Shown piece after piece: positions 4,660 through 27,223 of a stretch of DNA of 32,000 bases. The position numbers and the translations under genes are program-made. Source of the stretch: Halomicronema hongdechloris C2206 (GTDB taxonomy: Bacteria; Cyanobacteriota; Cyanobacteriia; Phormidesmidales; Phormidesmidaceae); NCBI RefSeq assembly GCF_002075285.3, contig NZ_CP021983.2, forward strand, positions 5,070,001 through 5,102,000. The letters are read 5' to 3'. The stretch's first letter is position 1. Each line of letters opens with the position of its first letter. The notes under the pieces are model-generated. The model saw only the letters and a list, made by a program, of their open reading frames with translations, did no database searches and was not told the origin of the DNA.

Positions 4660-5811
4660 TTAGCTGTTGAGTACCGCACTGGCTGCCGCCACCCCTGCCC
4701 CGGGGTTGAATTGGTCATAGCCTAGTTGCATCAGGGTGGCTTCCAAGGAACTGGTGGCGGCCAGAATGTTGCGATCGCACACAAACCCCAGATGGCCAAT
4801 CCGAAAGATCTTGCCCTTCAGATGCTCTTGCCCTCCAGCCAAGGCAATATCGAACTGTTTCTTCATCACCGAACGAATTTTCTCGGCCTCCACCTGCTGA
4901 GGGAGCACGGCCGTAATGGCCGGACTGGCCACATCATCGGGCCCCAACAACGGCAGATTCATCGCCTTCACAGCTGCTCGAGTCGCGCGCTTGTGGCGAT
5001 CATGACGGGCAAAGATGGCCTCTAAACCCTCGGCCTTCATCATGGTTAAGGCCGCTTGCAGGGCGAAGAAGAGATTCACCGGCGGCGTAAATGGCGTGGT
5101 CTGTTTGGCCGCATTCTTGCGATAGGGGCCTAAATCCAGATAATACTTCGGCAGCGTTGCCGTCTCGTAAGCCGCCCACGCCTTGGGACTCACCGACAGA
5201 AACGACAACCCCGGCGGAATCATATAGCCCTTTTGGGAACCGGAGCCTACCACATCCAGGCCCCACTCATCTACCGGCACGCTGCAAGCCCCCAGACTGG
5301 TGACGGCATCGACAATAATCAGGGCTTCGCCATGGGCTTTGACGTGGCGATTGATCGTCTTCAGATCGTTGAGCACACCAGTGGAGGTCTCGCTATGGGT
5401 GACAATCACCGCCTTAATTTGCTTTTGGGTATCGGCCTCCAAGGCCGTGCGAAAAGCCTCGGGATCCAGGGGTTTTCCCCATTCCGCCGTAATTGCCTGC
5501 ACCGCTAAGCCATAGGCTCGGGCTACCTGGGCCCAACGGTTGCCAAACTTGCCATTGTCCCCCACTAGGACCCGATCTCCCGCACTGAGGAAGTTGATGA
5601 TGCCAGCTTCCATGGCCCCGGTACCACTGGCCGTTAGAATCAGCACATCATTCTGGGTCTGGTGCAGCCACTTGAGGTTCTCAGTCGCCTCTGCCACGAT
5701 CTGGCTAAATTCACCACTGCGGTGGCCCATGGGATGCTTCGCCATCGCCAGAAGTACCTGTTCTGGAACCGGTGTAGGTCCCGGAATCATCAACATCATC
5801 TTGTCATCCAT
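4660..5811 (-). CDS. class V aminotransferase (alanine-glyoxylate / serine-pyruvate aminotransferase family)
   Basis: N-terminal MLMIPGPTPVP and the PLP-lysine context SGSQKGYMIPPGL, 383 aa. This is typical of the cyanobacterial AGXT-like protein (the 'soluble hydrogenase small subunit'). Confidence 0.9.
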   Translation of the reverse strand: MDDKMMLMIPGPTPVPEQVLLAMAKHPMGHRSGEFSQIVAEATENLKWLHQTQNDVLILTASGTGAMEAGIINFLSAGDRVLVGDNGKFGNRWAQVARAYGLAVQAITAEWGKPLDPEAFRTALEADTQKQIKAVIVTHSETSTGVLNDLKTINRHVKAHGEALIIVDAVTSLGACSVPVDEWGLDVVGSGSQKGYMIPPGLSFLSVSPKAWAAYETATLPKYYLDLGPYRKNAAKQTTPFTPPVNLFFALQAALTMMKAEGLEAIFARHDRHKRATRAAVKAMNLPLLGPDDVASPAITAVLPQQVEAEKIRSVMKKQFDIALAGGQEHLKGKIFRIGHLGFVCDRNILAATSSLEATLMQLGYDQFNPGAGVAAASAVLNS

Positions 5812-5994
5812 GGCGGTGCCTATCGGGTTTGCTTACAGTTAGGGTGCAATATTCAAGCTTACACAACATCGTCAGCAGATACATGGGTCTCTCCATTACA
5901 ATGCCAGAGCAATTGTCAGCCTGACTATGTCATGCCCCGATATTCAGGGAGTAACCCATGGCACCATAGAAAGGCCAACTGCCCAGCACTGTCG

Positions 5995-8427
5995 ATGAAA
6001 GCGGCTATTCATTCCCTGGTAGGAGTTGTTCTGAGTGTTACTAGCCTGATCCCTATGACTGCTCTGGCTCAAGAGACTTGGCAAGAGCCCCCCGACCCCA
6101 TCGCCACCATGCTGGATACCCCCTGGTATCCGGGCGTGCAGATTTCCCCCAACCATGACTGGTTGCTGCGGTTGGACCGTCCCCTGTTGCCGCGTTTAGC
6201 AGAATTAGCCCGGCCGCGGCTGCGGCTGGCAGGCCTACAGCTGAATCCAGTGACCCGGGGGCCCGCCATGCCCTATGCCTTCCAGGGGCTGGAGATCCAG
6301 AATATTGCCACCGGTGAGCGGCAATCGATTGCGTTGCCCGCCCATGACGGGCTGCGTAACCTGCGTTGGTCCCCCGAGGGCAACTACTTGGCCTTTAGCC
6401 TAGATCAGCCCACGGGGATTGAACTGTGGGTGGTGGATTTGGCCCGGGGTAAGGCCTGGCCATTGACGCCGCCGCTACTGAACAACACCTATGGCTCCCC
6501 TTGCCGCTGGATTTCGGAGACCGCCGGACTGCTGTGTAAGCTAGTACCGCCGGATCAGGGGGAGCCGCCAGTGCCAACGCCGGTGCCGCGGGGGCCACGG
6601 GTAGAGCAGAATCTGGGTCGCGAGGCGCCGGCTCGCACCTATACGAATTTGCTGGATACTCCCGATGACGAAGCCCTATTCGAATACTATCTGACCTCGG
6701 TGCTGGCCCGGGTGACCCTGAAGGGCGACCGCATCTCCCTGAGCGACACCCAGATGATTCAATCGGCGGTGCCCTCCCCAGACGGTGAGTGGATCTTGTT
6801 GACTACCATCCAACGGCCGTTTTCCTACCAGGTGCCGGCCCGCCTCTTCCCCAAGCGCCTTACCGTACTCGATAGCAGCGGCCGAGAACGCTACCATGTA
6901 GCCGATTTGCCCCTGGCCGATGACATTCCGGTCAGCTTCGACTCCGTGCGCCGAGGCCGCCGCATTGTCCATTGGCGCTCTGACCAGCCAGCCAGCCTCT
7001 ATTGGGTGGAGGCCCTAGATGGGGGCGATGCCAGCCAGGAGAGTGTCAGCCGCGATGCCGTCTGGCAATTGCCGGCCCCCTTTACTGATGAGCCCCAACG
7101 GCTCTGGACTACTGACTTGCGCTATCGCCGCATCCTTTGGGGCCATGGGACCCTGGCCTTGGCGGTGGAAACCTGGTACGACAGCCGCCGGATTCGGGTC
7201 TGGCGCTTGAATCCAGCGCAGCCACAGGCAGAGCCGGTGCTGCTGGATGATCGGGATTATCAAGACCGCTACAACGATCCAGGACAACCGATGCTGACCC
7301 CAGGCCCCTATCACCGGCGAGTGCTGATGCTGGCCCCTGATGGGGAGAGCCTCTATCTGCGCGGTCGTGGTGCCTCTCCCGAGGGCGTGTATCCCTTTCT
7401 AGACCGGTGGCATCTGCCCAGCCAGGAAAAGACGCGGCTGTGGCAAGCCGCCGATCCCTACTACGAGACGGTGGTGAGTCTGCTGAATCCCGAGGGCACC
7501 CAAATCATTACCCGGCGGGAGTCGCCCCGGGAGACGCCCAACTACTGGCGGCGCGATCTGGCCACCGGCGAGACCACGGCATTGACAGCCTTCACCGATC
7601 CGCGTCCCTGGTACCGAGATGTAGACCCAGAGGTGATTCGCTACCGACGGGCCGATGGGGTGATGCTGTCGGCTACCTTGTATTTACCGCCGGGCCATGA
7701 CCCGCTCAGGGATGGCCCGCTGCCTACAGTGCTGTGGGCCTATCCCCAGGAATATAAGAGTCGCGAGGCGGCAGCCCAGGTGACCACCGCTGAGAATGCC
7801 TTTCGTCGTCCCTATGCCTATACGCCTCTGTTTCTGCTGACCCAGGGCTATGCCGTGGTGATGGGACCGACGATGCCCATCATCGGCGAGGGGGAGACGG
7901 AACCCAATGATACCTATGTGCAACAACTGACCCAGAGTGCGGCGGCGGTGGTGGAGTATTTGGTGGATCAAGGGGTCAGTCGTCGTGATCAACTTGCGAT
8001 CGCAGGTCATTCCTACGGCGCCTTCACGGTGGCCAACCTGCTAGCCCACACCGATCTATTCCGGGCGGGCATCGCCAACAGCGGCGCCTACAACCGCACC
8101 CTCACCCCCTTCGGCTTCCAGGGAGAACAGCGCACCTTCTGGCAGGCCCCCGACGCCTACATGACCATGTCCCCCTTCACCCACGCGGCCCAGATCACCG
8201 AACCGCTGCTGTTGATCCATGGCGCCGAGGACGAAAACGTGGGCACCTACCCGATCCAGAGTGAACGGCTCTATGGGGCCATGAAAGGGCTAGGGGGCAC
8301 CGTGCGCTGGGTGGAATTGCCCCTGGAAGGCCACAGTTACGAATCTCGGGAAGCCATCGGGCACGTGCTGTGGGAGATGACCCGCTGGCTAGATCGCCAC
8401 GTCAAAGGCGAAGGCAACACTCCCTAG
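5995..8427 (+). CDS. S9 (prolyl oligopeptidase family) serine peptidase with signal peptide and N-terminal propeller
   Basis: Nucleophile motif GHSYGAF, acid in HGAEDENV and His in LEGHSYES. I set the start at ATG 5995 (MKAAIHSLVGVVLSV..ALAQE signal) because the 5662 start overlaps the antisense aminotransferase. Confidence 0.85.
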   Translation: MKAAIHSLVGVVLSVTSLIPMTALAQETWQEPPDPIATMLDTPWYPGVQISPNHDWLLRLDRPLLPRLAELARPRLRLAGLQLNPVTRGPAMPYAFQGLEIQNIATGERQSIALPAHDGLRNLRWSPEGNYLAFSLDQPTGIELWVVDLARGKAWPLTPPLLNNTYGSPCRWISETAGLLCKLVPPDQGEPPVPTPVPRGPRVEQNLGREAPARTYTNLLDTPDDEALFEYYLTSVLARVTLKGDRISLSDTQMIQSAVPSPDGEWILLTTIQRPFSYQVPARLFPKRLTVLDSSGRERYHVADLPLADDIPVSFDSVRRGRRIVHWRSDQPASLYWVEALDGGDASQESVSRDAVWQLPAPFTDEPQRLWTTDLRYRRILWGHGTLALAVETWYDSRRIRVWRLNPAQPQAEPVLLDDRDYQDRYNDPGQPMLTPGPYHRRVLMLAPDGESLYLRGRGASPEGVYPFLDRWHLPSQEKTRLWQAADPYYETVVSLLNPEGTQIITRRESPRETPNYWRRDLATGETTALTAFTDPRPWYRDVDPEVIRYRRADGVMLSATLYLPPGHDPLRDGPLPTVLWAYPQEYKSREAAAQVTTAENAFRRPYAYTPLFLLTQGYAVVMGPTMPIIGEGETEPNDTYVQQLTQSAAAVVEYLVDQGVSRRDQLAIAGHSYGAFTVANLLAHTDLFRAGIANSGAYNRTLTPFGFQGEQRTFWQAPDAYMTMSPFTHAAQITEPLLLIHGAEDENVGTYPIQSERLYGAMKGLGGTVRWVELPLEGHSYESREAIGHVLWEMTRWLDRHVKGEGNTP

Positions 8428-9224
8428 CTAGCAGCCACAAACAGGTCCGCCAGAGTAGCCGCCATCCACTGGGGGCGCTCCAGCATTAGCCAATGGCCTC
8501 CCTCAGGGACGTGGTGTACCTGCTGCGCCCCAAACTGATCGGCAAAGCGGGCTGGAATGTAGGGATCTTGGTCCCCCCAGAGCACCCAGGCCGGCACCTG
8601 CTGCAGCACCGTCTGTAACTCCTCTTCCCAGCCCTGAAAGTCTTCGGGATCGGCGGCCCGGTAAAACCGCAGAATCATCCGCCGCATGGGGGCATCGAAG
8701 TTGTCGTAGGTGCGCTGAATCTGCGCTCGAGTGAGCCGGGGATTACTCTTCTGCATCACTAGAGTGAACAGCCAGCGGTTGAACAACAGCCAGCTCAGCT
8801 CCCCCAGGATCGGAGTACGCCAGATGCGACCGAAGAAATGCCAGCGATAGTCACTGGAAAAGATGGTATTGAGAATGCCAATGCCCCTGACTCGCTGGGG
8901 ATGACGCACCGCCCAGGCCAGGCCGAAGGGACCGCCAATGTCATGGACCACCAGGTGAATGGGCGGCTCCAGTTTCAAGGCGTCTACCACCTCGTCTACG
9001 AAGGCGGCCAAGTTTTCGAGACTCACGTCGAACTCATCCCCCGGCCCCGAGGCCCCAAACCCCGGCAGATCGATGGCAATGCAGCGAAAATTGGCCTGCA
9101 AATGCTCTATCACTCCATCCCACACCTGGGCCGAATCGGGGTTGCCGTGGAGAAAGAGAATGGGCGCTCCTGCCCCAGCTGTGATGACGTTGATCTCAAT
9201 GCCCTGAACCAGAATAGTTGTCAT
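8424..9224 (-). CDS. alpha/beta-fold hydrolase (haloalkane dehalogenase / epoxide hydrolase-like)
   Basis: HGNPDSAQVW oxyanion region, Asp nucleophile in VVHDIGGPFG and C-terminal EGGHWLMLERP His. 266 aa. Confidence 0.85.
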   Translation of the reverse strand: MTTILVQGIEINVITAGAGAPILFLHGNPDSAQVWDGVIEHLQANFRCIAIDLPGFGASGPGDEFDVSLENLAAFVDEVVDALKLEPPIHLVVHDIGGPFGLAWAVRHPQRVRGIGILNTIFSSDYRWHFFGRIWRTPILGELSWLLFNRWLFTLVMQKSNPRLTRAQIQRTYDNFDAPMRRMILRFYRAADPEDFQGWEEELQTVLQQVPAWVLWGDQDPYIPARFADQFGAQQVHHVPEGGHWLMLERPQWMAATLADLFVAAS

Positions 9225-9432: not shown

Positions 9433-9822
9433 TCAGGCCCATATCCGATGAATCGGGTACCGATCAAACTTGTCATCCCTGCTGACAATATCCAACGAAT
9501 TATTCATGGCTTGAACTACCAAAATTCGATCGAAGGGATCACGGTGATCGGGGTGCAGTGGCAGATTCATGTAAGTTTTTGCATCTTCTACCTTTATGGG
9601 TAAGATCTCAGCGTTGATAAAATTCAGTCGAATTAAAATTTCGTCAAACGGTGAGGTTAACTGCAGTTTTCCAATATTCAACTTGATAGAGATTTCCCAC
9701 AAGCTAGCAATACTGAAGAATAGGTTCTCTTTAGCGTCAATGATGTCTCTAGTTGTGCTAGTCAGTCTTGGGTCAGAAGCAAAGTACCAAAGTACAGTAT
9801 GGGTATCTAAAAGTACTGCCAT
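9433..9822 (-). CDS. vapC: type II toxin, PIN-domain VapC family
   Basis: LLDTHTVLW (first PIN Asp), SLWEISIK, HRDPFDRILVVQA and VSRDDKF match the PIN acidic quartet layout. Its ATG immediately follows the antitoxin stop (TAAATG). Confidence 0.85.
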   Translation of the reverse strand: MAVLLDTHTVLWYFASDPRLTSTTRDIIDAKENLFFSIASLWEISIKLNIGKLQLTSPFDEILIRLNFINAEILPIKVEDAKTYMNLPLHPDHRDPFDRILVVQAMNNSLDIVSRDDKFDRYPIHRIWA

Positions 9823-10080
9823 TTACATGTACTCGACTAAGTCATCTAACGGTTCATCGAAGTCATCGGACATAGTAATCTGATCTGCCAGACTGCCATA
9901 CCCATATCGTTTTTCAGCCTCTTCCTCAGTGGAATTAGCTAAGTCCTGCCGCAATTCATGCAGAGTGTCCCCTGCGCTTTTCAGATGCTTTTCCAAGAGA
10001 AACTCAATGTAGTGCAGCACTTCGGCTTGCATTGACTCAGGTAGCGCCTCTAGCTTTTCTAAAATCACGGGTTTTACCAT
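9823..10080 (-). CDS. DUF2281-type antitoxin
   Basis: ILEKLEALPESMQAEVLHYIEFLLEKH is typical of DUF2281 antitoxins paired with VapC. ATG at 10080 lies 8 nt after a perfect AGGAGG (complement of 10089-10094). The track's 10083 start is a GTG one codon upstream. Confidence 0.7.
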   Translation of the reverse strand: MVKPVILEKLEALPESMQAEVLHYIEFLLEKHLKSAGDTLHELRQDLANSTEEEAEKRYGYGSLADQITMSDDFDEPLDDLVEYM

Positions 10081-10243
10081 CACTCTTTCCTCCTAAGCCC
10101 GAGCAAAGAAATAGATCCGTCTGTCCAGCCAAGACGTTGAGTGAGACTTTTTTTCATTATCGCCTATCTTCCAAGTCCCCCAGGTTGGTGAGACAAGGGC
10201 CGGGGGACGAAAAATAAAACATTGAGTCTCTACATAACATCAG

Positions 10244-12235
10244 CTAGAGCTGAATGATAGGTGCAAAGAGGCTTTGGAGCCGTAGCAGTTGCGCCCCCCT
10301 CAGGTAGAGCAAGTCGCCTTTGCCCAGCAGGTTGACGGCTTCTCCCTGTTTACCTCCCAGGATAATGGCGGAATCGGCTGCGCTGGCGGTTCTGAGGGCA
10401 ACGCGACCGGGTAAGTTGGAGCGAATCAAGGGGGTAACTACCTTGGCATCGGGTCGTTGGGTGGCGATGATCAGATGAATACCGGCAGCGCGGGCCATGG
10501 CCCCGAGTCGTTTGATGCTTTGCTCTAGAGCCGTGCGACTGTCTTTTTCAGCCATGAAGTCTGCATATTCGTCGAATATGCAGACAATACGAGGCATAGG
10601 AGAGCTGGCTTGTTGGTTATAGCGGCTGAGGTCGGAGCAGCGATTCTGTTCGAAGCGCTGATAGCGATGGTCCATTTCGTCCATGAGGGAGTCCATCAGT
10701 GCGATCGCACCCTCGGTATTTTTAACAATGGGCTGGCGCAACCAGGGAATGGTCTCAAATTCCGGGAAGGTAACTCGCTTGGGGTCCACCAGAGCAATCT
10801 GCAACTGCTCGGGAGAATGGCGCACCAGTAGGCTGAGTAGAAGCGATCGCAAGAATTCACTCTTACCACTGCCAGTGGTGCCTCCCACCAAAAAATGGCA
10901 GGTATTGGGATCGGACAAATCAGCTTCCACTAGATTGCCTTCCAGGTTCACACCAATGGCAATCTGTACCGGAGCAGTGACGGGCAGCTTTTGGGGCGTT
11001 ATGTACTCGTTAAACTGGGCGGTTTGCCGATCGGGGTGGGGTAAATCCACACTGACATAGCCCGCCTGGGGAGCAATCATGGGCGGAGCCGTGAGACCCA
11101 ATTGCACCCGCAGATCGTCAGTTAGCCGCAGGATAGAGTTGACCTTGACCCCTAATTGAGGTTTCAATTTCACCCGCAAAAAGGCCGGGGCCAGGGCCAC
11201 CCCCTGCAGGTCTACACCCACCCCAAAGGACTCCAGGGTACGGACCAGATGGGCCGCGATGGCATCTACTTCTACAGTGGGGGACGTGGGCTTAGGCTCA
11301 GGCGGCTTCGGCCCAGGTGGCGGCGGTGGCGGTAACTGGCCTGGTTGAACCGGTGGCACTGTTGCTTGGGGCTCGAAATAGGTCTGACATTTTTTGAATT
11401 GCGGACAAATATTACAGAGCTCCAACTGCACCGCTTTCGGTGGTGGTTCCCCCTGATGGGGCTGCCAGGCTAACCAATCGCGGATTTGTTGCAACTTTTG
11501 GGGAATCAGCTGATGCACCGCCGCTTCTAACTGCTGCCAGGAATAGATCTGCTCTTGCCAGTCTGGCAGCACACTATAAACAGCAGAATCAATGGGCACA
11601 CCAATTTTTTCCCGTAGCATATAGCCATAGAGGGCTACCTGGGCCAATTGGGCCGAGGGCTCTGGCGATTGATAGGTTTTGTACTCCACCACACAGAGAC
11701 GGTGCTGCGCGAAGTCATACACCAGGCTGTCAAATTGGCCTTGCACAAGTTGATGGCTGCCATCGGGGAGGGTGAACTCATATTTGACTTTCAATTCCTG
11801 GGCTATGAAGGTCTTGGCAATCACCTCTTTTGGACTGCAGAAGCGGCGATTGCTCACCAATAGTTGCGCCCATCGCCGGATCAATCCCTGCAACCCTTGC
11901 CACAGTTGATGCAGGGCCTGGGCTTTACTAGGGTCTTCAGCAATCGCCCCCTGCAAGTAGGGAAAAAAGTGGCTCTGATAGAGCCGTTGCTGCAATTGCT
12001 GGGCAATGCCTTCAACGTCAAGGGTTTGCGCCTCTGGAGTCAAGAGATGCTGGAAGGTCGGTTCTGAGCGCAACTGCTTGACAAACTGGTCTGACAGCTG
12101 ATGAAAGATTTTGCCAATGCCTGTGGGACCTGCTGCGGGCAAAAACATGGTCATGCCACCGAAGTGATGCCCCAGATACAACAGGCGGGGACACTCAAAG
12201 GCAAGACGAATTTTACTGACACTGAGGGAAGACAT
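10244..12235 (-). CDS. Cas4-like 4Fe-4S PD-(D/E)xK nuclease fused to an FtsK/SpoIIIE-type DNA translocase motor
   Basis: N-terminal domain: SKIRLAFECPRLLYL (first Cys), QGQFDSL (Asp), VVEYKT (ExK), QVALYGYML (QxxxY) and CNICPQFKKC (Cx2Cx5C). A PPPPPPGPKPPEPKP linker follows. The FtsK alpha/beta motor has Walker A VGGTTGSGKSE, Walker B IVCIFDEYADF and IIATQRPD. I see no TM helices and no gamma domain. I set the start at ATG 12235, which overlaps the upstream stop as TAATG. Confidence 0.85.
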   Translation of the reverse strand: MSSLSVSKIRLAFECPRLLYLGHHFGGMTMFLPAAGPTGIGKIFHQLSDQFVKQLRSEPTFQHLLTPEAQTLDVEGIAQQLQQRLYQSHFFPYLQGAIAEDPSKAQALHQLWQGLQGLIRRWAQLLVSNRRFCSPKEVIAKTFIAQELKVKYEFTLPDGSHQLVQGQFDSLVYDFAQHRLCVVEYKTYQSPEPSAQLAQVALYGYMLREKIGVPIDSAVYSVLPDWQEQIYSWQQLEAAVHQLIPQKLQQIRDWLAWQPHQGEPPPKAVQLELCNICPQFKKCQTYFEPQATVPPVQPGQLPPPPPPGPKPPEPKPTSPTVEVDAIAAHLVRTLESFGVGVDLQGVALAPAFLRVKLKPQLGVKVNSILRLTDDLRVQLGLTAPPMIAPQAGYVSVDLPHPDRQTAQFNEYITPQKLPVTAPVQIAIGVNLEGNLVEADLSDPNTCHFLVGGTTGSGKSEFLRSLLLSLLVRHSPEQLQIALVDPKRVTFPEFETIPWLRQPIVKNTEGAIALMDSLMDEMDHRYQRFEQNRCSDLSRYNQQASSPMPRIVCIFDEYADFMAEKDSRTALEQSIKRLGAMARAAGIHLIIATQRPDAKVVTPLIRSNLPGRVALRTASAADSAIILGGKQGEAVNLLGKGDLLYLRGAQLLRLQSLFAPIIQL

Positions 12236-14235
12236 TAGGGAGTCACGTAGCAAATTAACTGTGCTTGACGGCTGGCACGGGGATCTAAGACTTGAATCCG
12301 ATTTTCCTGGCAAAGGGCTTCAATCACCTGATCGATCTCTTGCTCACTGAGATCTGGGAATTGCTGCTGAGTACTTTCTATCAACACCATGAGCCCAATG
12401 AAGAGTTGAGTTGTCATGAGATTGAGGACATATCGTCTCACTTCTTCTAAAGGGGGTGGCGGTGGATTACCGGTTACAAGCTGCAATTTCTGGAGTAGAG
12501 GGCATTGTTCGAGCACTTTAGATTGGCGGACAAAGGATTGCAGATCCTGGAGATGGGGAGTTTTTTGATCGATCACTAATTCGCCAGCCCGGGCCGCATT
12601 CGCGAGCTGGTGGTAGGTTTCCAGGTACTGAAGTGAGAGTAAGTCAGGCTTTATGTGGATACAGTTAGCCCGACTATCGAAGATTTGACGATAGATTTGA
12701 TGACCTTTATTCTTCGCTTGTCCTACCCCCTCTGCTCGGATCAAGAAAAGATGATCGCAGAACTGGTTGGTGACCATTTTCTGGCAGGACTTCATGATGT
12801 GATAGAAGGACTGCATGTTGGGATCTTCGCTCCAAACGATGCCAGTACGATTCGATTTTTGGTAGGACAGGGAATAGGAAGCATAGGTGCTGCTCTGAAG
12901 AAATTGAGAGGTGATTTGGGGTACTTCTAGGGCCTCGAGAGCTTGCCTAAGACGCCAGATTAGCTCGGGGGATGAGAATTGATTAATTCGCATTACCTTC
13001 TGACGGACACTCCTAAACTCTTTATCCCAGGTAAGCTGGAAACTTGCTAATTTCTGCTCGCCAGTTCCCTGTCCATTATCGCCATCACCCTTCACCTTGT
13101 CTGGCGGAAACTTAGGCATTCGGCCATGCTGTTTGTAGTAGGTAATGAGCTGTTGGCCCAGCTTAAGCACGTTACGCGGTAGGGCTTTTTCCCCTGGAAA
13201 TTGATGTTTTAACCAGTTTCGAGTCAAGGGGGCGATAGGACTTTCTGGCTCAGGTCTGGCTTGGGCATGGAGAGGAGCCAAACGGGTAGCCCATAGAGCG
13301 GCGGCCTGGTCTAAGTTGATTTGGCGAAGCTGTAAAACTTGGTTGATTCGAGCTTTGTCGGCAGGTTGAATAGTATTTCGATTGGCTTGCCAGGTACTGC
13401 TGACAACACTAATGAGCACCAAGAAATTTTTGAGATTTTCATTGTGAATGGTAGAGTTTAGGTTAAATAGGCTCTGGAGATCAGGTTTGCCGTTTGGAAG
13501 TCTTGGAATACTGTCTAAGTTGTCAAAGCAAAGTACAATGGGCTGAGTGGAATCTGCAATTCGCCCAATATTGCCCAATATTTTCTGGGCTGCATCTTCT
13601 GAGGTGATGGACTTGCGAACTTGAAGTTTCTGGAGATCTTCCTTGTCAAGATCATCCCCCTTCAGCCAGGCATAGGCCAGCATTCTAAGATCAAAATTGG
13701 TGGCCAGATCATAGAGGACGCCAAAGAATTCCTTGCCATTGTAAATGCCAGCAGGAAAACTGGCTGCCAAATCACGTACAAAAGTTCCCCTTTCTCCCAA
13801 TATCCACTTGGTAAGAGAGCGATTGCGTAAGCTAGGAAGGCTTTTTAACCACAGTAAGAGTTGAGACTCTGATTGGCCTTCTGGTACGTGAATCAGGCTG
13901 TCAATGGTGTTGCGGAGCGTGTGACGCCATAGATAGTTGCTGTCGGGCCAAGGTCCAATATAAGCAAAGAAAGCTTTGTTGTTTAGCTGACGCTTAAGGC
14001 GACCGAGTAGATAACTCTTTCCTGACCCTGATGCTCCTGCTAGGAGAATGGTCCGAGTAATGTGATCAACGGTAATTTGATTTATAGTTTGTTCAATTTC
14101 CTGGAGAATTTGCCAATGGATGGCATCAACAACCAGGTTGGGATCTTGATTTTCTTGCCAGAAGTTTCCAGGTCTAAAAGTGCTGGGATCAAAGGGGTTA
14201 AGATTTCTTTTGACTAATTGTTTGAGCGAAGTCAC
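12235..14235 (-). CDS. AAA+/STAND-like P-loop ATPase with C-terminal winged-helix-like domain (Orc1/Cdc6-like layout)
   Basis: Walker A LLAGASGSGKSYLLGRL, Walker B IVLCFDNLD and sensor-1-like LVLISVVSST, with a long helical region and a C-terminal wHTH-like tail. GTG start, 666 aa. It is noticeably more AT-rich than its neighbours. Confidence 0.8.
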   Translation of the reverse strand: MTSLKQLVKRNLNPFDPSTFRPGNFWQENQDPNLVVDAIHWQILQEIEQTINQITVDHITRTILLAGASGSGKSYLLGRLKRQLNNKAFFAYIGPWPDSNYLWRHTLRNTIDSLIHVPEGQSESQLLLWLKSLPSLRNRSLTKWILGERGTFVRDLAASFPAGIYNGKEFFGVLYDLATNFDLRMLAYAWLKGDDLDKEDLQKLQVRKSITSEDAAQKILGNIGRIADSTQPIVLCFDNLDSIPRLPNGKPDLQSLFNLNSTIHNENLKNFLVLISVVSSTWQANRNTIQPADKARINQVLQLRQINLDQAAALWATRLAPLHAQARPEPESPIAPLTRNWLKHQFPGEKALPRNVLKLGQQLITYYKQHGRMPKFPPDKVKGDGDNGQGTGEQKLASFQLTWDKEFRSVRQKVMRINQFSSPELIWRLRQALEALEVPQITSQFLQSSTYASYSLSYQKSNRTGIVWSEDPNMQSFYHIMKSCQKMVTNQFCDHLFLIRAEGVGQAKNKGHQIYRQIFDSRANCIHIKPDLLSLQYLETYHQLANAARAGELVIDQKTPHLQDLQSFVRQSKVLEQCPLLQKLQLVTGNPPPPPLEEVRRYVLNLMTTQLFIGLMVLIESTQQQFPDLSEQEIDQVIEALCQENRIQVLDPRASRQAQLICYVTP

Positions 14236-14263
14236 AAGCAGCCACCATTCTCTTGTACTGCGA

Positions 14264-15091
14264 TTAAATTAGGCTAATAAAAAATAAATTCCCGCCAATA
14301 TGTTGGGGGATCCCTGCTGCTAATTCAGCGTCACTATAGGTGGATACATCCTGGAGTGTGTCTAGTTCGATGCGATCGCATCGCTGCAGCTCGTAGAGCA
14401 TGGCATCCAGAGCTTCCCGGGTAAGGGGAGGCTGCAAGGCCTGACGCAGATGGAAAATAGGCAGATAGTTGTCGGTGCCTAGCTGTCGATCGAGTTGGCG
14501 AATGGTCTCTAGCACAGCCTCTGGGGTTATTGCATCGGCAGTTGTAGATGCTGAGGCGACTGCCCCTTGAGTGGTCGCCAGGGTTTGGCGCAAAAAGGTG
14601 GCATAGTGGCCTATCATCGCTGACGTCATTAGGAGAGAGGAGTTTGTAGGTGTGTACTCCTGTAGCAAGTAATGTCGCCCCTCGGGAGTAAGCCAGACCT
14701 CCTTGATTTGTGTCTTAGTCGCTTGAATCATACCCCGTTGCTGCAATTGGTGTAGCAACCGCTGGCGCTCGCTAGGGGGAACCTGCTTTGCCTGCCCCGG
14801 TGTGGCTGACTTGGTCGTAGCGGCTCTGACTAAAGCCAACTCATCCGGGGTCACTGGCAGCACGCTGGTGTCTTGGTTAAGTAGGGTTTTGCCAGCCCGG
14901 GTAATGCGATAGCGCTGAATCTCTTCGATATAGGCCACCAATCCTTTGCTGGTCAGGGCACGACAGGCTTTATCCCGTTCGCTAGCCTTTGTCTTAGAAT
15001 TAGGCTGAATTTGACTGATGAGGCTGCGATAGTCAGGTGGGTACTCCAACAAGCGCAGCAGGAACTTTTGTTCTATCGAATCTAACTCCAT
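14264..15091 (-). CDS. protein with three winged-helix-like modules (putative DNA-binding component)
   Basis: Two internally similar modules: ERDKACRALTSKGLVAYIEEIQRYRITRAGKTLL and ERQRLLHQLQQRGMIQATKTQIKEVWLTPEGRHYLL. A third lies at the C-terminus (LTREALDAMLYELQRCDRIELD). It is the first gene of the operon, 28 nt upstream of the ATPase. Confidence 0.6.
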   Translation of the reverse strand: MELDSIEQKFLLRLLEYPPDYRSLISQIQPNSKTKASERDKACRALTSKGLVAYIEEIQRYRITRAGKTLLNQDTSVLPVTPDELALVRAATTKSATPGQAKQVPPSERQRLLHQLQQRGMIQATKTQIKEVWLTPEGRHYLLQEYTPTNSSLLMTSAMIGHYATFLRQTLATTQGAVASASTTADAITPEAVLETIRQLDRQLGTDNYLPIFHLRQALQPPLTREALDAMLYELQRCDRIELDTLQDVSTYSDAELAAGIPQHIGGNLFFISLI

Positions 15092-15186: not shown

Positions 15187-16260
15187 CTACGATGACAATG
15201 ATTCCGACGGTGGCGGAAACACGGCGTCGAACTCCGCCAGGCTGGGTTCCTGGCGGGGCACCTGATTCAGCTGGTGGCGAATGCGGGAAATAGTGTCGTA
15301 GACGGCGCGGCGGGTGCGGTTGATGCCGCCCAGGGGCCGATGTTCCGGCAGGGCGTGCCAGGGGCTGTAGGAGAGATTTTCACAGAAGGCTGCCTGCTCT
15401 GAAGACTCGAAGGATTGAGCCGCAATGGTGAGGGTGGCCACCTTCTGCAGAGGTGCCCACCAGCGAATGCGGGGGTCTTCCACCGGCATTTTCACCGGGT
15501 CGGTCTGGATCTGCACGTAGAAATCGAAGCCGGCACTGTGGTCCTGCAGGTGCGATCGCATCCGTTCCCGCAGATAGTCCCGGGAGCGAAAGCCCAACCG
15601 CCGCCAGAAGCCCCCCTCCCGGTTAACTTCATGGGGAATGGCCACATATTTCACTGCCCTCTCCCCCAGGCGATAGGGGGTCATGCTCCAGTACTGGACC
15701 TCCAAGGGACTGTGGATGGTCTTCAGGCGAATCCGCAGGGCGATCCAGAGCTCCCGCCAGCGCCACCGCAAGGGATTAAGGCCGGTTAAAAAGAATCGAA
15801 TCGGATTGCGGCTCTGGGTGCGCTCGATGTCGCCGAAAAATTCCACATAGTCCTTGGCGTCCCGCACCGGAAACACCGGAAAATCCACCAACAGAAAGTC
15901 ATGGGTGCGGGCCTCTTGTTCCCCCTCTAGAATCTTCTGTCCTGGGACTTCAAATAACTTCAGGGCCATGCCATGGGCATCCCCCTTGGCATCGTCCTTG
16001 ACGCTGAAGTTGGAGTAGCGAATACAGACCGGAAAGGTCTGCCCCGGCGTTTGCAACACCCCCAGCCGCAGGGCCGGATCCTCAGGCAGGTGCGGATCTA
16101 CCTGGAAACTGCCCCGGACGCAGCCATGGCCCTTGGGATGCTCTCCCCGCTTCACCGGCGGCTGTTTATTCAGAATCCGCTCACTGATATCGGTGACCGC
16201 CGCAATGGCCGCGGCTTCATCCGGCGGTATCTGTTCTTGACCAAGGGCTGGGGCAGGCAT
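15187..16260 (-). CDS. catalase-related heme protein (mini-catalase, cAOS-like size class)
   Basis: KRGEHPKGHGCVRGSF matches the catalase distal RxxHxKG motif. RTRRAVYDTISRIR fits the proximal Tyr/Arg motif. At 357 aa it is well short of a full catalase. Confidence 0.7.
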   Translation of the reverse strand: MPAPALGQEQIPPDEAAAIAAVTDISERILNKQPPVKRGEHPKGHGCVRGSFQVDPHLPEDPALRLGVLQTPGQTFPVCIRYSNFSVKDDAKGDAHGMALKLFEVPGQKILEGEQEARTHDFLLVDFPVFPVRDAKDYVEFFGDIERTQSRNPIRFFLTGLNPLRWRWRELWIALRIRLKTIHSPLEVQYWSMTPYRLGERAVKYVAIPHEVNREGGFWRRLGFRSRDYLRERMRSHLQDHSAGFDFYVQIQTDPVKMPVEDPRIRWWAPLQKVATLTIAAQSFESSEQAAFCENLSYSPWHALPEHRPLGGINRTRRAVYDTISRIRHQLNQVPRQEPSLAEFDAVFPPPSESLSS

Positions 16261-16284
16261 GGCAACCTCCAGGGAGTGAGGACA

Positions 16285-17749
16285 TTAGGGAGCATTGGCG
16301 AGGAACCGCAGGGACTTGAGGCTGGGCAGCAAGAAATAGCCGCCGCCCCGCATGGCCACAAACCGAGGTAAATTCAGCAGGCGCTGGCGCACCGGGCAGC
16401 GGGGAATGGTCATGGTGCCGGTGCCATCGTTGTCGCCGATCAGGGGGTCCTTGTTGTCATAGAGGCCATTGAAGCTGGGATCGTTGGCCCAGGTCTGCTG
16501 CACAAACTCGAATTGGCGGCCGATGTCGGCATTGAGGCAAAAGAAATGCAAGCCCCGTAGCTGACCGTCGTCTTCGATATCCAAGGGCAGCTTGCCGGCC
16601 TCGATGTCATCTAAGGGAAACAGGGGGTCGCCAAACAGGCTGCCCCGTCGCAAGATTCGATGGCGGCTAGAGGTGGTAACCGATCCCTCACCGGGGGCAT
16701 CCAACAGGGAATCGCGGGGGTGGGTGCGGCGGATGTGGGCTCCCATGGGGCAGCGTCGGCCATCGGCGTCTTCGGCCAGATAGGCAAAGGCATTTTTATC
16801 CGGCAGCTGGGGATTATCCTGCTCGGGGGCCAGGGTCAGGGGGGTGCCGCTGGGCCAACGCCCTACGAATTTGGCGGCAATCAGAGCCATGGCCTCGGGA
16901 TCAGGGGTGCCCTGGTCATCTACAGTTTGGGCGGCGATATAGCGCCAGAAGCCGGCCACATCCTGAGCTAGTTTGCGGTAGACCAAGAAGCTGCCATTGT
17001 GGCCGAAGTCTTTCACATCGGGCAGTTCCGTGCCGGGAAACGGGGGCAGTAGACTCTCGGGATCGGCTGGGTTGGGCACTACCGGCGTGATCGGCAAGAT
17101 GCCATAGCCATCCGGGTAGCCCAATAAAACTTCGCCGATGGCAACGGTGTTCTGGGTGTGGCGGCGAGGCTTACTGAGGCCTTCAATATCCGGTTGGGAG
17201 ACGCTGTCGTTGAAGCCGAAATGTTCCTTGAAGCTGGGCAGGCGAAATCCTGTTTCTTCCCTCACCAGAGTGAGGCCGCTATCAGCCTGCGATAACAGCT
17301 GCTGTCGGTAGGCGTCAAGGCGCTCGGGGCTGGGGCCGTGGAGCAGCACGATCACGTGGATCGGGGGGCCGCTGGTACCGCCGAATTCCCATTGGTCGGG
17401 AGCGCTGGCCCGGTATCCCCCAGAATCTCAGCCCGCTTCGGCTCGGCCAGGCCTTCGGTGAACTCTCGCGGGCAGGTGTTGAGGGCCGTCTCCACCAGGC
17501 CATAGCCACCAGACCGGCATGGGTGAAGGCCAGGTTGCAGGTGACCTCGGGCTTGATGGTGCTGCCGTCAGGCTTTTGCGGCCAGGGTTTGGCCGTGGTC
17601 ACCTCGGGAATCACCTGCCGCAGCCAGGCTTTGGCCCCGGCCCGGTCGGTGATCGTCAGGAGGCCATAGCTGGTATAGAGGAGGTGGCCAAAGCCACTGA
17701 GAACAATGCCCTGGATATCCTCGCGGTCCGGTGGGGTCAGGTCTGTCAT
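16285..17749 (-). pseudogene. DyP-type peroxidase interrupted by two 1-nt frame changes
   Basis: DyP motifs present: HFGFNDSVSQP (GxxDG-like), GAHIRRTHPR (proximal His) and ILRRGSLFG (distal Arg). The N-terminal ORF (from 17749) turns into Arg/Pro-rich nonsense after ...THAGLVAM. A plausible sequence continues in a second frame (GLVETALNTCPREFTEGLAEPKRAEILGDTGP, about 17490-17410) and then a third (SAPDQWEFGGTSGPPIHVIVLLHG...). Confidence 0.7.
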
Positions 17750-17797
17750 GGGGATAGTCTGGATGGGGGTAGACGATTATGGAGCCTAGTCGGGGAC

Positions 17798-19009
17798 CTA
17801 CAGTCGACTCAGCCAGGTCTCGACCTCTGGGCGCTCGAGCTCATCAGCCAGGGGTTGCACGATGGTGCGATCGCGCAGAATAGTCGCCACGGTGGCCTCG
17901 GGATAGGCCCGATAAAACACCTGGGAGGGCAGTTGCTGGTCATTGCGGAAAAACTGCTTGAAGGCGACGATATCCACGGCCCCGGCCTGGGGATAGCCTG
18001 CCACGTTGTTCCAGATGGAGTTGAGGCCATCGCTGGCCCGGTCGGCAAAGTCGCCCAGGTAGTTGTCGAAGGAGCCATCGTAATGGGTGACAAACAGCAG
18101 ATGCTTGCCACCATCGACGATGGCCCAATGGGCGAAGTGAATGGAGCGAATATTCGAGAGGGACCCCGGCGGAAACAGATTGCGGGCGGCAAAGTGAATC
18201 AAACACAGCACGATGCGCAACCGCAGCAGGCGGCCCCGCCTGACGGTGGACAGCAGATGCAGATGGTTGATGCCGTGCACCACTTCCGGTCGCTGCAGGG
18301 TGCGCAACCGCTCGAAGTCGACGTTGACACCGATATATTCCCCGGCCAGGCGCTTTTTCTCAGGGGCGCCCAGGATGCCGCCGACGAACCGCAGAATCCG
18401 CAGGATAATCTGCCGGATCAGGTGGCAAATGCCGCCGATCAGCCGCTCGATCAATTGCCAAAACCTGGCCCCCACTAAAGCTAGGGCCTGCCACAGGGTC
18501 AGGGGCCGCTTGAGGCTGAACAGAGCATTCAGCAGGGGTTTCAGCCCCGGCTGATCGAGGTAATCGGCGACGGTGTCCTGGTCTAGCAGATCTTCTAGGG
18601 TGCGGCGAATCTGGAGTCGCTTGCGAATGCTGCCTACGGTCTCTCCCTGGATGGCGATGTAGGCGGCCTGAGCCCGGCAGGAATGGGCCTTGATGAAGGA
18701 CTCAAAGGACGCTCTGCCGCCATAGCCGTCGCACTTACTCCAGAGGGCATCCATGTCGGGGCTGAGGCTGACCAGTTCTTGCAGATAGGCGGGTAGGCTG
18801 CCGTCGTAGTTGCCGGTCATCAATAGCCGTTGGCCGTACTCGGGGTCAGCGATAATGGCCAACCGCAAAAAGTGGGTCTTCTGACTCTTGGCAATCTGCA
18901 GGTAGGGGTTGCCGGTCAGATCCGTTGCGATCGCATCTAAGACCTGGCGCAGAGCCGGCTCCTCTCCAGAGCGGATGGGAGCAATCACGGTCAGGGGTTG
19001 GTTGGCCAT
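17798..19009 (-). CDS. hypothetical protein with internally duplicated DyP/chlorite-dismutase-like alpha+beta barrel halves
   Basis: The two halves share a motif pattern: THFLRLAIIAD..LLMTGNYDGSLPAYLQELV versus IHFAHWAIVDGGKHLLFVTHYDGSFDNYLGDFA. I set the start at ATG 19009 (MANQPLTVIAPI). It lies 48 nt upstream of the DyP gene. Confidence 0.6.
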   Translation of the reverse strand: MANQPLTVIAPIRSGEEPALRQVLDAIATDLTGNPYLQIAKSQKTHFLRLAIIADPEYGQRLLMTGNYDGSLPAYLQELVSLSPDMDALWSKCDGYGGRASFESFIKAHSCRAQAAYIAIQGETVGSIRKRLQIRRTLEDLLDQDTVADYLDQPGLKPLLNALFSLKRPLTLWQALALVGARFWQLIERLIGGICHLIRQIILRILRFVGGILGAPEKKRLAGEYIGVNVDFERLRTLQRPEVVHGINHLHLLSTVRRGRLLRLRIVLCLIHFAARNLFPPGSLSNIRSIHFAHWAIVDGGKHLLFVTHYDGSFDNYLGDFADRASDGLNSIWNNVAGYPQAGAVDIVAFKQFFRNDQQLPSQVFYRAYPEATVATILRDRTIVQPLADELERPEVETWLSRL

Positions 19010-19198
19010 GCCGACCTCAAGGGTGGGGATAGAGACTGGCTGGGAACACAGGCTGCTACCCATTAGTATTGACGCCACACCGGAGAAGTCAAGAGAACTT
19101 AATGGTTTTTTGGCCAAAACTGCCAGAAACCCCCAGATTTTGTTGGCCTAGCCCACACAAATGTTGGATCTCTTCAAGAAAAGCAATATCGCGTTCAA

Positions 19199-26492: not shown

Positions 26493-26618
26493 ATATTGTT
26501 TCTTAAGCTTTCAATCCTATCAACAGACACCCTATCTGTCCGGATCATCTCGGAGTATTGAGTGATTTGACCCTCTGTACAGGACAAAAGCTTGAAGGGT
26601 AGATAGGAAAAGGGTTTC

Positions 26619-26798
26619 ATGGAATTGCGAAAGACTAACGAAACCCTTATGGAACAGGTTACTCTACTGCGCGATACCCTGCGGAGTCATCTCAACTGGC
26701 ACGGGGTTCACTTCACTGCTAGCCCGCAGTTGCAACTGGCTGCGCGATTACCTCATCCACAGCCCCGATGTCAGCGATGCCGATCGTGCCCTCTGTGA
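26619..26798 (+). mobile_element. possible remnant of an IS4-like transposase N-terminus (59-codon ORF)
   Basis: MELRKTNETLMEQVTLLRDTLRSHLNWHG... resembles, from memory, the N-termini of cyanobacterial IS4-family transposases. The remainder (..RLPHPQPRCQRCRSCPL) looks like nonsense. I see no inverted repeats and no DDE region. Confidence 0.25.
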
Positions 26799-27223
26799 TA
26801 TCCCACCCCGGGGTGGTGAGTAACGAGCTTGCCCTGAGCGCAGTCGAAGGGTAAAGAGCCTGTCCTGTAAGGCTTTCAGCCAGGCTCCGCCAAGCGCGTC
26901 AGCGGCTCCGCAGGAGCAACGTAGTCGTTTCGCCAAGCGACATGAACGGCTTTACCTGCCCGGAGGGAATAGGGTGGCGAGTAAAGAGTGATACCAATTC
27001 TCCAACAACTGACTACACATGATCTCCCGTAGGGGCGCACAGCCGTGCGCCCAGCGCAATATCTCGGTATAAGCACAGACCGAGGCATTCTCGTTGGCGA
27101 TAGCCTGCCTTTGGCATCGGGTAACGCGACCATGACTGCTGGTGGAGCTTCAAAGCTGGGTTTGCATCACAGAGAGTCAGGCGAGATGGCCGCAAAAACT
27201 CCATAGCTTCCCATCTCTAACTA

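Follow-up and report, generated by a model that had tools for sequence, protein, structure and literature searches.

A 32,000-nucleotide stretch of the Halomicronema hongdechloris C2206 genome (contig NZ_CP021983.2, positions 5,070,001 to 5,102,000), hereafter the window, carries on its reverse strand three genes in one translationally coupled cassette. The last of these, gene 3, is predicted to encode a soluble FtsK alpha/beta motor joined through a flexible tether to a catalytically complete iron-sulphur (Fe-S) nuclease of the PD-(D/E)XK type, while genes 1 and 2 encode a probable winged-helix protein and a putative Orc/Cdc6-like ATPase. Judged on its sequences, the cassette is a member of the Orc/Cdc6-associated HerA/FtsK capture systems, a group for which a computational description is available (Rakesh, Aravind and Krishnan, Nucleic Acids Res 2024; PMC10853773). 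We lean towards the view that the fusion protein is the effector of a three-protein DNA capture-and-degradation system, in which sensor-guided loading would bring DNA to pump-fed, tethered nucleases and foreign or linear DNA would be the main target. The genes, in cassette order, are:

14264-15091, reverse strand: gene 1, a 275-residue probable triple winged-helix DNA-recognition subunit (open reading frame (ORF), alignment, profile matches)
12235-14235, reverse strand: gene 2, a 666-residue putative Orc/Cdc6-like (STAND-like) AAA+ ATPase (Pfam, AlphaFold2, Foldseek)
10244-12235, reverse strand: gene 3, a 663-residue nuclease-FtsK fusion (ORF, Pfam, start/stop overlap with gene 2)

Domain organisation of the fusion protein

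The ATG of gene 3 at position 12235 and the TAA stop of gene 2 have one base in common (TAATG, in the context CCC TAATG TCT). A longer, TTG-started version of the frame is also present; the ATG was taken as the start because it overlaps the gene 2 stop and because orthologues begin at the same place. The product is 100% identical to an annotated H. hongdechloris C2206 "putative FtsK-like protein". Pfam recognises in it PDDEXK_1 (residues 3-279, E = 5e-13), FtsK_alpha (residues 319-399, E = 4.5e-9) and FtsK_SpoIIIE (residues 422-595, E = 1e-40). Conservation was read from fusion-protein alignments of 15 and 66 orthologues and of 22 sequences, with a separate set of 57 distant relatives at 15-50% identity. 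The features of the protein, all on the reverse strand, are:

11366-12235, reverse strand: predicted Fe-S PD-(D/E)XK nuclease domain of AddB/AdnA/Dna2/Cas4 type, residues 1-290 (Pfam, AlphaFold2, Foldseek)
12191-12193, reverse strand: Cys15, first predicted Fe-S ligand, in AFECPR (ECPR at 12185-12196; conservation)
11726-11740, reverse strand: nuclease motif II, G166-Q-F-D169-S (conservation of D169)
11678-11692, reverse strand: nuclease motif III, V-V-E184-Y-K186 (conservation of K186 and E184)
11627-11641, reverse strand: nuclease motif IV, Q199-V-A-L-Y203 (conservation of Q199 and Y203)
11387-11416, reverse strand: C274-NI-C277-PQFKK-C283 (Cx2Cx5C), the three C-terminal predicted Fe-S ligands (conservation)
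11282-11365, reverse strand: proline-rich tether of variable length, residues 291-318 (alignment; the AlphaFold2 confidence falls at the model end)
11039-11281, reverse strand: FtsK alpha domain, residues 319-399 (Pfam; aligned to the FtsK structures 2iuu and 2ius)
10247-11038, reverse strand: FtsK beta (RecA-like motor) domain, residues 400-663 (Pfam, FtsK structures in the PDB)
10859-10885, reverse strand: motor Walker A, GGTTGSGKS (conservation)
10559-10579, reverse strand: motor Walker B, IFDEYAD (conservation)
10490-10492, reverse strand: predicted arginine finger R582 (conservation)
10451-10465, reverse strand: sensor Q593 within ATQRP (conservation)

All of the nuclease hallmarks listed in a preliminary description of gene 3 (the ECPR cysteine, GxxD, ExK, QxxxY and Cx2Cx5C) are present, in that order and within a few bases of where it had placed them. 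C15, D169, E184, K186, Q199, Y203 and C274/C277/C283 are invariant in the 15-sequence alignment and, save C15 and E184 (both at least 90% conserved), also among the 66 sequences; the four cysteines are again invariant among the 22. In the distant relatives, conservation of 90% or more is still seen at the motif-II Asp, the motif-III Lys, the motif-IV Gln and each of the three C-terminal cysteines. The domain combines RecB-type motifs with the cysteine pattern C...Cx2Cx5C, the pattern that is reported for AddB and Cas4 (Yeeles 2009; Lemak 2013).

The fold points in the same direction. An AlphaFold2 model of residues 1-300 (predicted local distance difference test (pLDDT) 92.1, predicted template modelling score 0.86) gave as its best Foldseek matches in the PDB the Fe-S nuclease domains of AddB (4ceh_B, E = 1.3e-6), AdnA (6ppr_A) and Dna2 (5ean_A), followed by ACE1, RecE and the Cas4 protein SSO0001. 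A sequence profile of the nuclease domain (22 sequences) searched against the PDB returned chance matches to proteasome subunits only; it did not reach the AddB/Cas4 structures, so the kinship of the nuclease rests on the structure model. Cas4 and the Argonaute-associated cyanobacterial ACE1 have the fold, the catalytic motifs and the four-cysteine pattern in common with the fusion nuclease. The latter differs in a helical insertion of about 90 residues, in its score of 28.6 bits against the Cas4 model TIGR00372 (cutoff 65) and in having no CRISPR-cas or prokaryotic Argonaute (pAgo) genes as neighbours in the window. The Pfam family PF01930 gives no match to the fusion protein at E ≤ 0.1, whereas 17 of the 57 distant relatives do match it. 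Because TIGR00372 falls under its cutoff and the closest folds are those of AddB and AdnA, Cas4 proper is ruled out as the identity of the domain, and the label of AddB/Cas4/Dna2-clade Fe-S nuclease is used here. The "complete Cas4-type" nuclease of the preliminary description therefore holds at the level of the clade, where alignment finds the motifs conserved and the model matches AddB, AdnA, Dna2 and Cas4, but not as Cas4 itself.

Between nuclease and motor lies the poly-Pro linker that had been described before, with its proline-rich stretch at residues 294-316 (positions 11288-11356). The tether as a whole varies from about 25 to about 100 residues among orthologues, with a median identity of 17%; the medians are 63% in the nuclease, 66% in the alpha domain and 77.6% in the beta domain (cyanobacterial orthologues). 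The motor matches the PDB FtsK structure 2iuu at E = 2e-46 and has, as had also been noted, intact Walker A and B motifs. These, together with R582 and Q593, are invariant in the 15-sequence alignment and invariant or at least 90% conserved in the 66-sequence one; in the 57 distant relatives Walker A/B and the arginine, glycine and glutamine of the motor are at least 90% conserved. The motor scores 225 bits (3e-67, residues 326-643) against the PADLOC SspH model and 148 bits against the NCBIfam FtsK model. No UvrD/PcrA-type superfamily 1 (SF1) helicase domain was found in the protein by Pfam.

Cellular FtsK/SpoIIIE proteins have the alpha and beta domains, Walker A/B, arginine finger and sensor glutamine in common with the fusion, which lacks their membrane domain, long linker and gamma domain (the winged helix that reads FtsK-orienting polar sequences (KOPS) and activates XerD), and carries the nuclease instead. 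No membrane segment is present (the Kyte-Doolittle mean over 19 residues peaks at 1.31, and a globular nuclease forms the N-terminus), and Pfam gives no Ftsk_gamma match at E ≤ 0.1. The chain stops about 20 residues past the GKGDLLY...RLQSLF end of the beta domain, and all aligned orthologues likewise end shortly after that domain. With neither membrane anchor nor gamma domain, the protein is implausible as a KOPS-guided septal translocase of the standard kind, which agrees with the conclusion drawn earlier from the same two absences.

The partner proteins

Two ATPase motifs were located in the gene 2 product:

14014-14037, reverse strand: gene 2 Walker A, G67-ASGSGK-S74 (G67, G70, G72, K73 and S74 invariant in 52 sequences)
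13513-13539, reverse strand: gene 2 Walker B region IVLCFDNLD, residues 233-241, with D238-N239-L-D241 (conservation)

The protein is 100% identical to hypothetical protein XM38_048350, and Pfam gives only weak P-loop matches for it (AAA_16, NACHT, KAP). Its AlphaFold2 model (pLDDT 88.2) was matched by Foldseek first to Cdc6 (1fnn_A, 3.2e-6), Cdc6/Orc1 (2qby_B) and Drosophila, yeast and human ORC subunits including ORC3/4, and also to TnsC and the plant NLR protein ZAR1. On this model, the gene 2 product is predicted to be an AAA+ ATPase of Orc/Cdc6 fold with extra C-terminal domains. Past the AAA+ module there are an alpha/beta domain (residues ~440-560) and a small, winged-helix-like helix-strand domain (residues ~590-666), neither of which has a significant Pfam match, the C-terminus giving weak winged-helix matches only. 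In the Walker B region, the 52 sequences show no change at C236, D238, L240 and D241, and N239 is kept in at least 90% of them. An Asn thus takes the place of the usual AAA+ catalytic Glu, and two residues further on there is another invariant Asp (CFDNLD); this we take to be the NACHT-like hhhhDxhD form, as in NACHT-type ATPases of the STAND class (signal transduction ATPases with numerous domains), and not the D-E form. Such an Asn-bearing Walker B suggests a slow nucleotide switch instead of a motor.

Gene 1 lies 28 bases upstream of gene 2, and its product has three conserved blocks (residues ~1-75, ~85-165 and ~195-275) with a variable linker. The middle block matches MarR-type winged helices (HosA, 9e-4) and the N-terminal block gives a weak match to MksE/winged helix-turn-helix (wHTH) proteins; Pfam scans found nothing significant in the two end blocks. 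The product is a probable triple winged-helix DNA-recognition subunit. Across 51 loci the fusion has a median identity of 62.6% and the ATPase one of 45.4%; the winged-helix protein, at 39.8%, has the lowest and is thus the fastest-evolving subunit. The products of genes 1 and 2 probably set where and when the motor acts, and the DNA "shredder" envisaged in the preliminary description is likely to stand under these two partner proteins.

Distribution and variation

A pattern scan with one genome per species found loci encoding a relative of the fusion protein in at least 305 species, a lower bound; the best 80 of the 305 loci are all cyanobacterial. The architecture is widespread. When 81 loci were searched with tblastn, homologues of gene 1 and gene 2 stood directly upstream of the fusion gene, in the same order, in essentially all loci with upstream DNA. 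One exception (L030) has about 3 kb between the Orc/Cdc6-like gene and the fusion gene, and in another (L012) 4.8 kb of upstream sequence held neither partner; these two loci may have an interrupted or rearranged cassette. Taken together, gene order and homology indicate that the cassette is a coherent genetic unit.

Most relatives carry a second nuclease. In 60 of 82 related loci the fusion protein has an extra N-terminal DEDDy 3'-5' exonuclease domain (PF01612), as do most of the database homologues of about 870 residues, and its motifs (LDTE, HNAxYD, YAxMDTVYL) are intact in the long orthologues. The forms from Halomicronema, Nodosilinea, Leptothoe, Phormidesmis and Pseudanabaena are without this domain, and no separately encoded DEDD exonuclease is present anywhere in the window.

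An exhaustive phmmer search of 1.84 billion representative proteins with the nuclease domain gave only 124 clusters at E ≤ 1e-3; outside the cyanobacteria, named distant relatives come from Myxococcota, Planctomycetota and a Helarchaeota archaeon. Among the 57 long distant relatives, PDDEXK_1 was matched in 45, FtsK_SpoIIIE in 40, DUF87/HerA in 26, FtsK_alpha in 22, a STAND NTPase (nSTAND1) in 14 and a 3'-5' exonuclease in 4; by these domain matches the nuclease family appears nearly always joined to a pumping or switch ATPase. A Myxococcota contig (L083, from a metagenome-assembled genome) carries a 250-residue gene, an 807-residue AAA_16 gene and then the fusion, the last two overlapping by four bases. 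The trio is homologous to that of the window (35% identity, E = 7e-114; 28%, 1e-52; hhalign probability 99.1%) and stands beside Cas6, Cas2 and a gene containing a reverse transcriptase (RT) domain, about 4 kb downstream (L083 13744-16049). In the same contig a fourth overlapping gene of 547 residues, with no Pfam match, follows the FtsK fusion (L083 9046-10689). A Planctomycetota contig has a similar arrangement, with genes of 317, 727 and 724 residues.

Comparison with described systems

The passages of PMC10853773 drawn on here belong to a computational analysis of the HerA/FtsK domain of DndH and define "HerA/FtsK capture systems" whose core consists of an Orc/CDC6 ATPase, an active restriction endonuclease (REase), HerA/FtsK and wHTH. 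An inactive REase is described as inserted before the C-terminal wHTH of the Orc/CDC6 protein, and one set bears an FtsK-alpha domain "captured from the cellular versions". Optional parts are a fast-evolving protein of two to four wHTH domains and a 3'-5' exonuclease fused to FtsK. The proposal made there predicts an anti-invader role, with a pump that catches invading DNA and delivers it to the nuclease and an Orc/CDC6 ATPase that gives the apparatus its location; a 2026 paper of the same group restates it. FtsK-like ATPases had already been placed with nucleases "in numerous other instances" (an earlier paper; Iyer et al. 2004, at second hand).

As far as these passages go, the window cassette has in common with the capture systems a predicted Orc/Cdc6 AAA+ protein with extra domains and a wHTH-like C-terminus, a predicted active REase-fold nuclease, an FtsK-alpha-bearing motor and a separate fast-evolving protein that probably has several wHTH domains, and most cyanobacterial orthologues add the 3'-5' exonuclease fused to the FtsK subunit. 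They differ in that the capture systems are called "mobile gene neighborhoods", whereas the cyanobacterial clade is vertical, syntenic and placed among housekeeping genes; the same passages mention neither cyanobacteria nor a nuclease of Fe-S AddB/Cas4 type. The idea of a pump feeding tethered nucleases, put forward in the preliminary description, is a reasonable one and agrees with this part of the published proposal. That description had the anatomy of the protein right, but missed the cassette partners, the DEDDy exonuclease of most orthologues and the prior description of the group.

DndFGH and SspFGH are likewise three-gene systems, in which F is a Walker-A ATPase, DndG is a wHTH protein and the H subunit combines an REase-fold nuclease with a C-terminal HerA/FtsK motor. 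DndH/SspH, however, are proteins of about 1,700 residues with inactive SNF2, beta-sandwich, target recognition and inactive methylase domains, none of which the fusion has. Their nuclease is of a different family, and the phosphorothioate modification genes linked to them are absent from the vicinity of the window cassette. Classification of the cassette as SspFGH-like was rejected, as only the motor matches SspH and genes 1 and 2 have no significant match to DndF/G or SspF/G, the match of gene 2 to the DndF model being at P-loop level only (E = 0.004).

AddAB, AdnAB and RecBCD resemble the fusion in the AddB/AdnA nuclease fold, the C...Cx2Cx5C cysteines and the placing of motor and nuclease on one polypeptide, and AddAB has two nucleases, as do the long, DEDDy-bearing fusion forms. 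Their motor, in contrast, is an SF1 helicase, while that of the fusion is predicted to be a ring-forming double-stranded DNA pump of FtsK type; the fusion nuclease is N-terminal, unlike theirs, and no Chi-recognition element is known for it. HerA-NurA of archaea and bacteria comes near to the action proposed for the fusion, in that a hexameric translocase of the HerA/FtsK superfamily feeds a nuclease for end processing. Fusions to HerA/DUF87 also occur among the distant relatives of the fusion nuclease, one of them in a Helarchaeota archaeon. NurA, however, has a different fold and is a separate protein, and the fusion motor is of FtsK alpha/beta type, not a HAS-barrel HerA.

Several proteins with FtsK-like names were found to lie outside the family. 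Sll0284, Synpcc7942_0981 and Alr3799, listed as "FtsK/SpoIIIE" in a review of morphogenesis, are of HerA/YjgR type, and All7666 is a plasmid FtsK whose motor is no more than 38% identical.

Genomic neighbourhood

Directly downstream of the cassette, at 9433-10083 on the reverse strand, lies a VapBC pair, consisting of a VapC-like PIN toxin (129 residues, PF01850, 1.5e-15) and a DUF2281 antitoxin (86 residues, 3.3e-16) whose genes abut end to start; such a pair adjoins the cassette in no other related locus. On the forward strand at 22638-26492, 7.5 kb from the cassette, a 1,284-residue protein combines nSTAND1 (residues 264-588) with a CHAT caspase-like protease (residues 984-1238). CHAT-STAND proteins are a conflict or programmed-death type described for multicellular cyanobacteria. 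At and past the 3' end of this gene (25001-27000) the GC content is 0.40-0.46.

Upstream of the cassette, at 15187-19117 on the reverse strand, are four ORFs of 357, 356, 144 and 439 residues and about 61% GC, with almost no family matches (a sub-threshold catalase-like match for the first); in other loci none of the four has a homologue close to the cassette. The genes that directly border the window cassette are found in none of the 82 related loci. The cassette itself (10244-15091) has a GC content of 51.0%, with 46.6% in the ATPase gene, against about 61% in its flanks (5662-9224 and 15187-19117) and 55.8% in the window; the lower value could reflect foreign origin in the Halomicronema lineage or a family-specific composition. 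Promoter and terminator matches in the window are at chance level. No tRNA is present in the window and no integrase or relaxase adjoins the cassette. No cas genes were found among the scanned window ORFs or in the sampled cyanobacterial flanks.

In other cyanobacteria, 31 loci have a gene for a ParA/MinD-like (NUBPL/CbiA) ATPase next downstream of the cassette and in the same orientation, as a rule with the gene for isoleucyl-tRNA synthetase (IleRS) after it; examples are L001 11399-12346, L045 8135-9019 and L026 6107-6988, and the loci belong to Nostocales, Gloeocapsopsis and Coleofasciculaceae. As a fourth component of the cassette this gene was rejected, being absent from the window and from other clades and travelling with IleRS; it is read as synteny, although some functional link may exist. 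The sole plasmid copy of the cassette (L082 298-4435) is on pPSE7367.01, a 328-kb conjugative replicon of Pseudanabaena sp. PCC 7367, where it adjoins a 1,060-residue DEAD/DEAH (SNF2/ZorD/DpdE-like) helicase, a SWIM zinc-finger protein and an IS21 element.

Proposed mechanism and alternative explanations

In the capture-and-degradation system that we favour, the winged-helix protein and the Orc/Cdc6-like switch ATPase would recognise a DNA feature or a DNA end, and this recognition would recruit or license assembly of the FtsK hexamer around double-stranded DNA. The ATP-driven motor would then reel the DNA in, and six N-terminal nucleases, held by flexible proline-rich tethers at the alpha face, would cut it as it passes. 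In most orthologues the DEDDy 3'-5' exonuclease would take the opposite polarity, giving two-strand degradation of the RecBCD/AddAB kind, whereas the Halomicronema copy would act through the Fe-S nuclease only. The target would most likely be incoming or linear foreign DNA (plasmid, phage or transforming DNA), but the same activity may also serve to process chromosome ends left by breakage.

Support for this comes from several sides. The architecture and intact active sites of the fusion, the coupled three-gene order, the predicted Orc/Cdc6 fold of gene 2, the winged-helix matches of gene 1 and the frequent joining of the nuclease family to pumping or switch ATPases all count in its favour. 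The parts list agrees point by point, where testable, with that given in the relevant passages of PMC10853773. The Myxococcota cassette stands beside Cas6, Cas2 and RT genes, the motor scores higher against SspH than against FtsK, the winged-helix subunit evolves fastest, and VapBC and CHAT-STAND genes are near.

A number of observations weigh against it. The cyanobacterial cassette behaves unlike a typical mobile defence island: across cyanobacterial orders the motor is 78% and the whole fusion 63% identical, and synteny of the flanks holds in Nostocales (about 35 loci, with Gloeocapsopsis and one Coleofasciculaceae genome included), in Phormidesmidales (9 loci) and among the relatives of Nodosilinea (3 loci). 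The 136 flanking ORFs of 25 loci are mostly housekeeping genes (ParA/NUBPL, IleRS, transporters, pyridoxal phosphate-dependent enzymes, two-component systems), and matches to defence models in these loci are few, namely the SNF2/ZorD-like helicase of the Pseudanabaena plasmid, some methylases and Uma2. The cassette is on one of 72,556 plasmids, and a phage search gave no copy. No modification enzyme is adjacent to it and no dnd or ssp genes are nearby; the wHTH protein of gene 1 has no DndG/DptG/SspB profile match. The inactive-REase insert predicted for the Orc/Cdc6 subunit was not confirmed in gene 2 by a Pfam sequence scan, and literature searches turned up no biochemical or genetic work on any member of the family. 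Conservation and synteny thus indicate that the cyanobacterial clade is old and vertically inherited among housekeeping genes, which leaves room for a role in DNA-end repair as well as in defence.

The same facts bring forward the best-placed alternative, a housekeeping machine for double-strand break end resection or linear-DNA clearing in large-genome, polyploid cyanobacteria, analogous to AddAB/RecBCD or HerA-NurA. Here the FtsK ring would drive DNA into the AddB-type 5'-3' nuclease (with the DEDDy 3'-5' nuclease where present), and the ATPase and wHTH protein would be end sensor and loader. The very high conservation, order-level synteny, chromosomal location and housekeeping neighbours are all in keeping with it, as are the structural matches of the nuclease, among which AddB, AdnA and Dna2, all enzymes of end resection, rank above Cas4, and the long forms with two nucleases of opposite expected polarity and intact DEDDy motifs; in addition, recBCD is reported to be often missing from larger cyanobacterial genomes (PMC5101192). 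A housekeeping function sits less well with a distribution of at least 305 species in the pattern scan that is not universal among cyanobacteria. The review's list of FtsK-like proteins for Synechocystis 6803 and S. elongatus 7942 names HerA/YjgR-type proteins only. A STAND-like sensor with a fast-evolving wHTH partner is, moreover, typical of conflict systems according to the passages cited (PMC10853773), and the Myxococcota homologue adjoins CRISPR-Cas genes. We regard this alternative as rather unlikely while giving it serious weight, and repair and defence may not exclude each other.

Somewhat less probable is that the cyanobacterial cassette is no mobile defence island but an anciently inherited genome-maintenance machine, a dual-nuclease end processor driven by a ring pump and loaded by the Orc/Cdc6-like ATPase and the wHTH protein, which replaces RecBCD/AddAB in large-genome, polyploid cyanobacteria or clears broken, linear or septum-trapped copies of the chromosome. 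If this were true, bacteria would have a third architecture for end resection, this one based on an FtsK motor.

An abortive-infection or suicide module, in which the STAND-like ATPase senses infection and frees the pump-nuclease on the cell's own chromosome, has a smaller probability again. In its favour are a gene 2 product with NACHT-like Walker B and Orc/STAND fold, the lack of a modification partner to mark self DNA and the VapBC and CHAT-STAND genes close by, and SspFGH and DndFGH, with the same FtsK-type motor, damage unmodified host DNA when unrestrained (PMC8092258). The data are nevertheless those of the capture-and-degradation system with foreign DNA as target, between which and suicide they do not discriminate, and long vertical retention fits a tightly controlled enzyme without specifically favouring suicide.

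DNA transfer or maintenance for a mobile element, for instance as a TraB-like conjugative double-stranded DNA pump or in plasmid partition or processing, is very improbable. FtsK-like pumps drive Streptomyces conjugation, there is a weak TraB match (5.5e-12) and one copy is on the conjugative plasmid of Pseudanabaena PCC 7367; however, a single plasmid among those searched and no phage carry the cassette, no integrase, relaxase or tRNA is next to it, the chromosomal flanks are stably syntenic and a nuclease fused to a transfer pump would destroy its cargo. Scarcely credible, finally, is a conventional FtsK of cell division or chromosome segregation, although most names in databases imply one ("DNA translocase FtsK", "cell division protein FtsK"). 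The alpha and beta domains are genuine (E = 1e-40 to 2e-46), but membrane anchor and gamma/KOPS-XerD domain are lacking, a predicted active nuclease is fused and two non-division genes are coupled.

Significance

The nuclease-FtsK architecture is not a new invention, being already annotated in databases and computationally described. Modestly new are the identity of the nuclease as an AddB/Cas4-type Fe-S enzyme, the NACHT-like Walker B of the partner ATPase and the old, vertical cyanobacterial clade. The label "cell division protein FtsK" on these proteins is almost certainly wrong, and a widespread annotation is thereby corrected. Pumps of the FtsK family are usually seen as movers of intact DNA, whereas here the motor appears hard-wired to an Fe-S nuclease, usually also joined to a second exonuclease, under an Orc/Cdc6-like switch. 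The cyanobacterial clade is a good entry point into such systems, with three highly conserved genes at a single locus in culturable strains, among them Pseudanabaena PCC 7367, Leptolyngbya PCC 7375, Tolypothrix PCC 7101 and Chroococcidiopsis. Destruction of incoming DNA, should the cassette carry it out, could be among the causes that make transformation or conjugation difficult in some cyanobacteria; a role on chromosomal breaks would instead supply a missing piece of recombination in cyanobacteria, a group in which recBCD is frequently absent.

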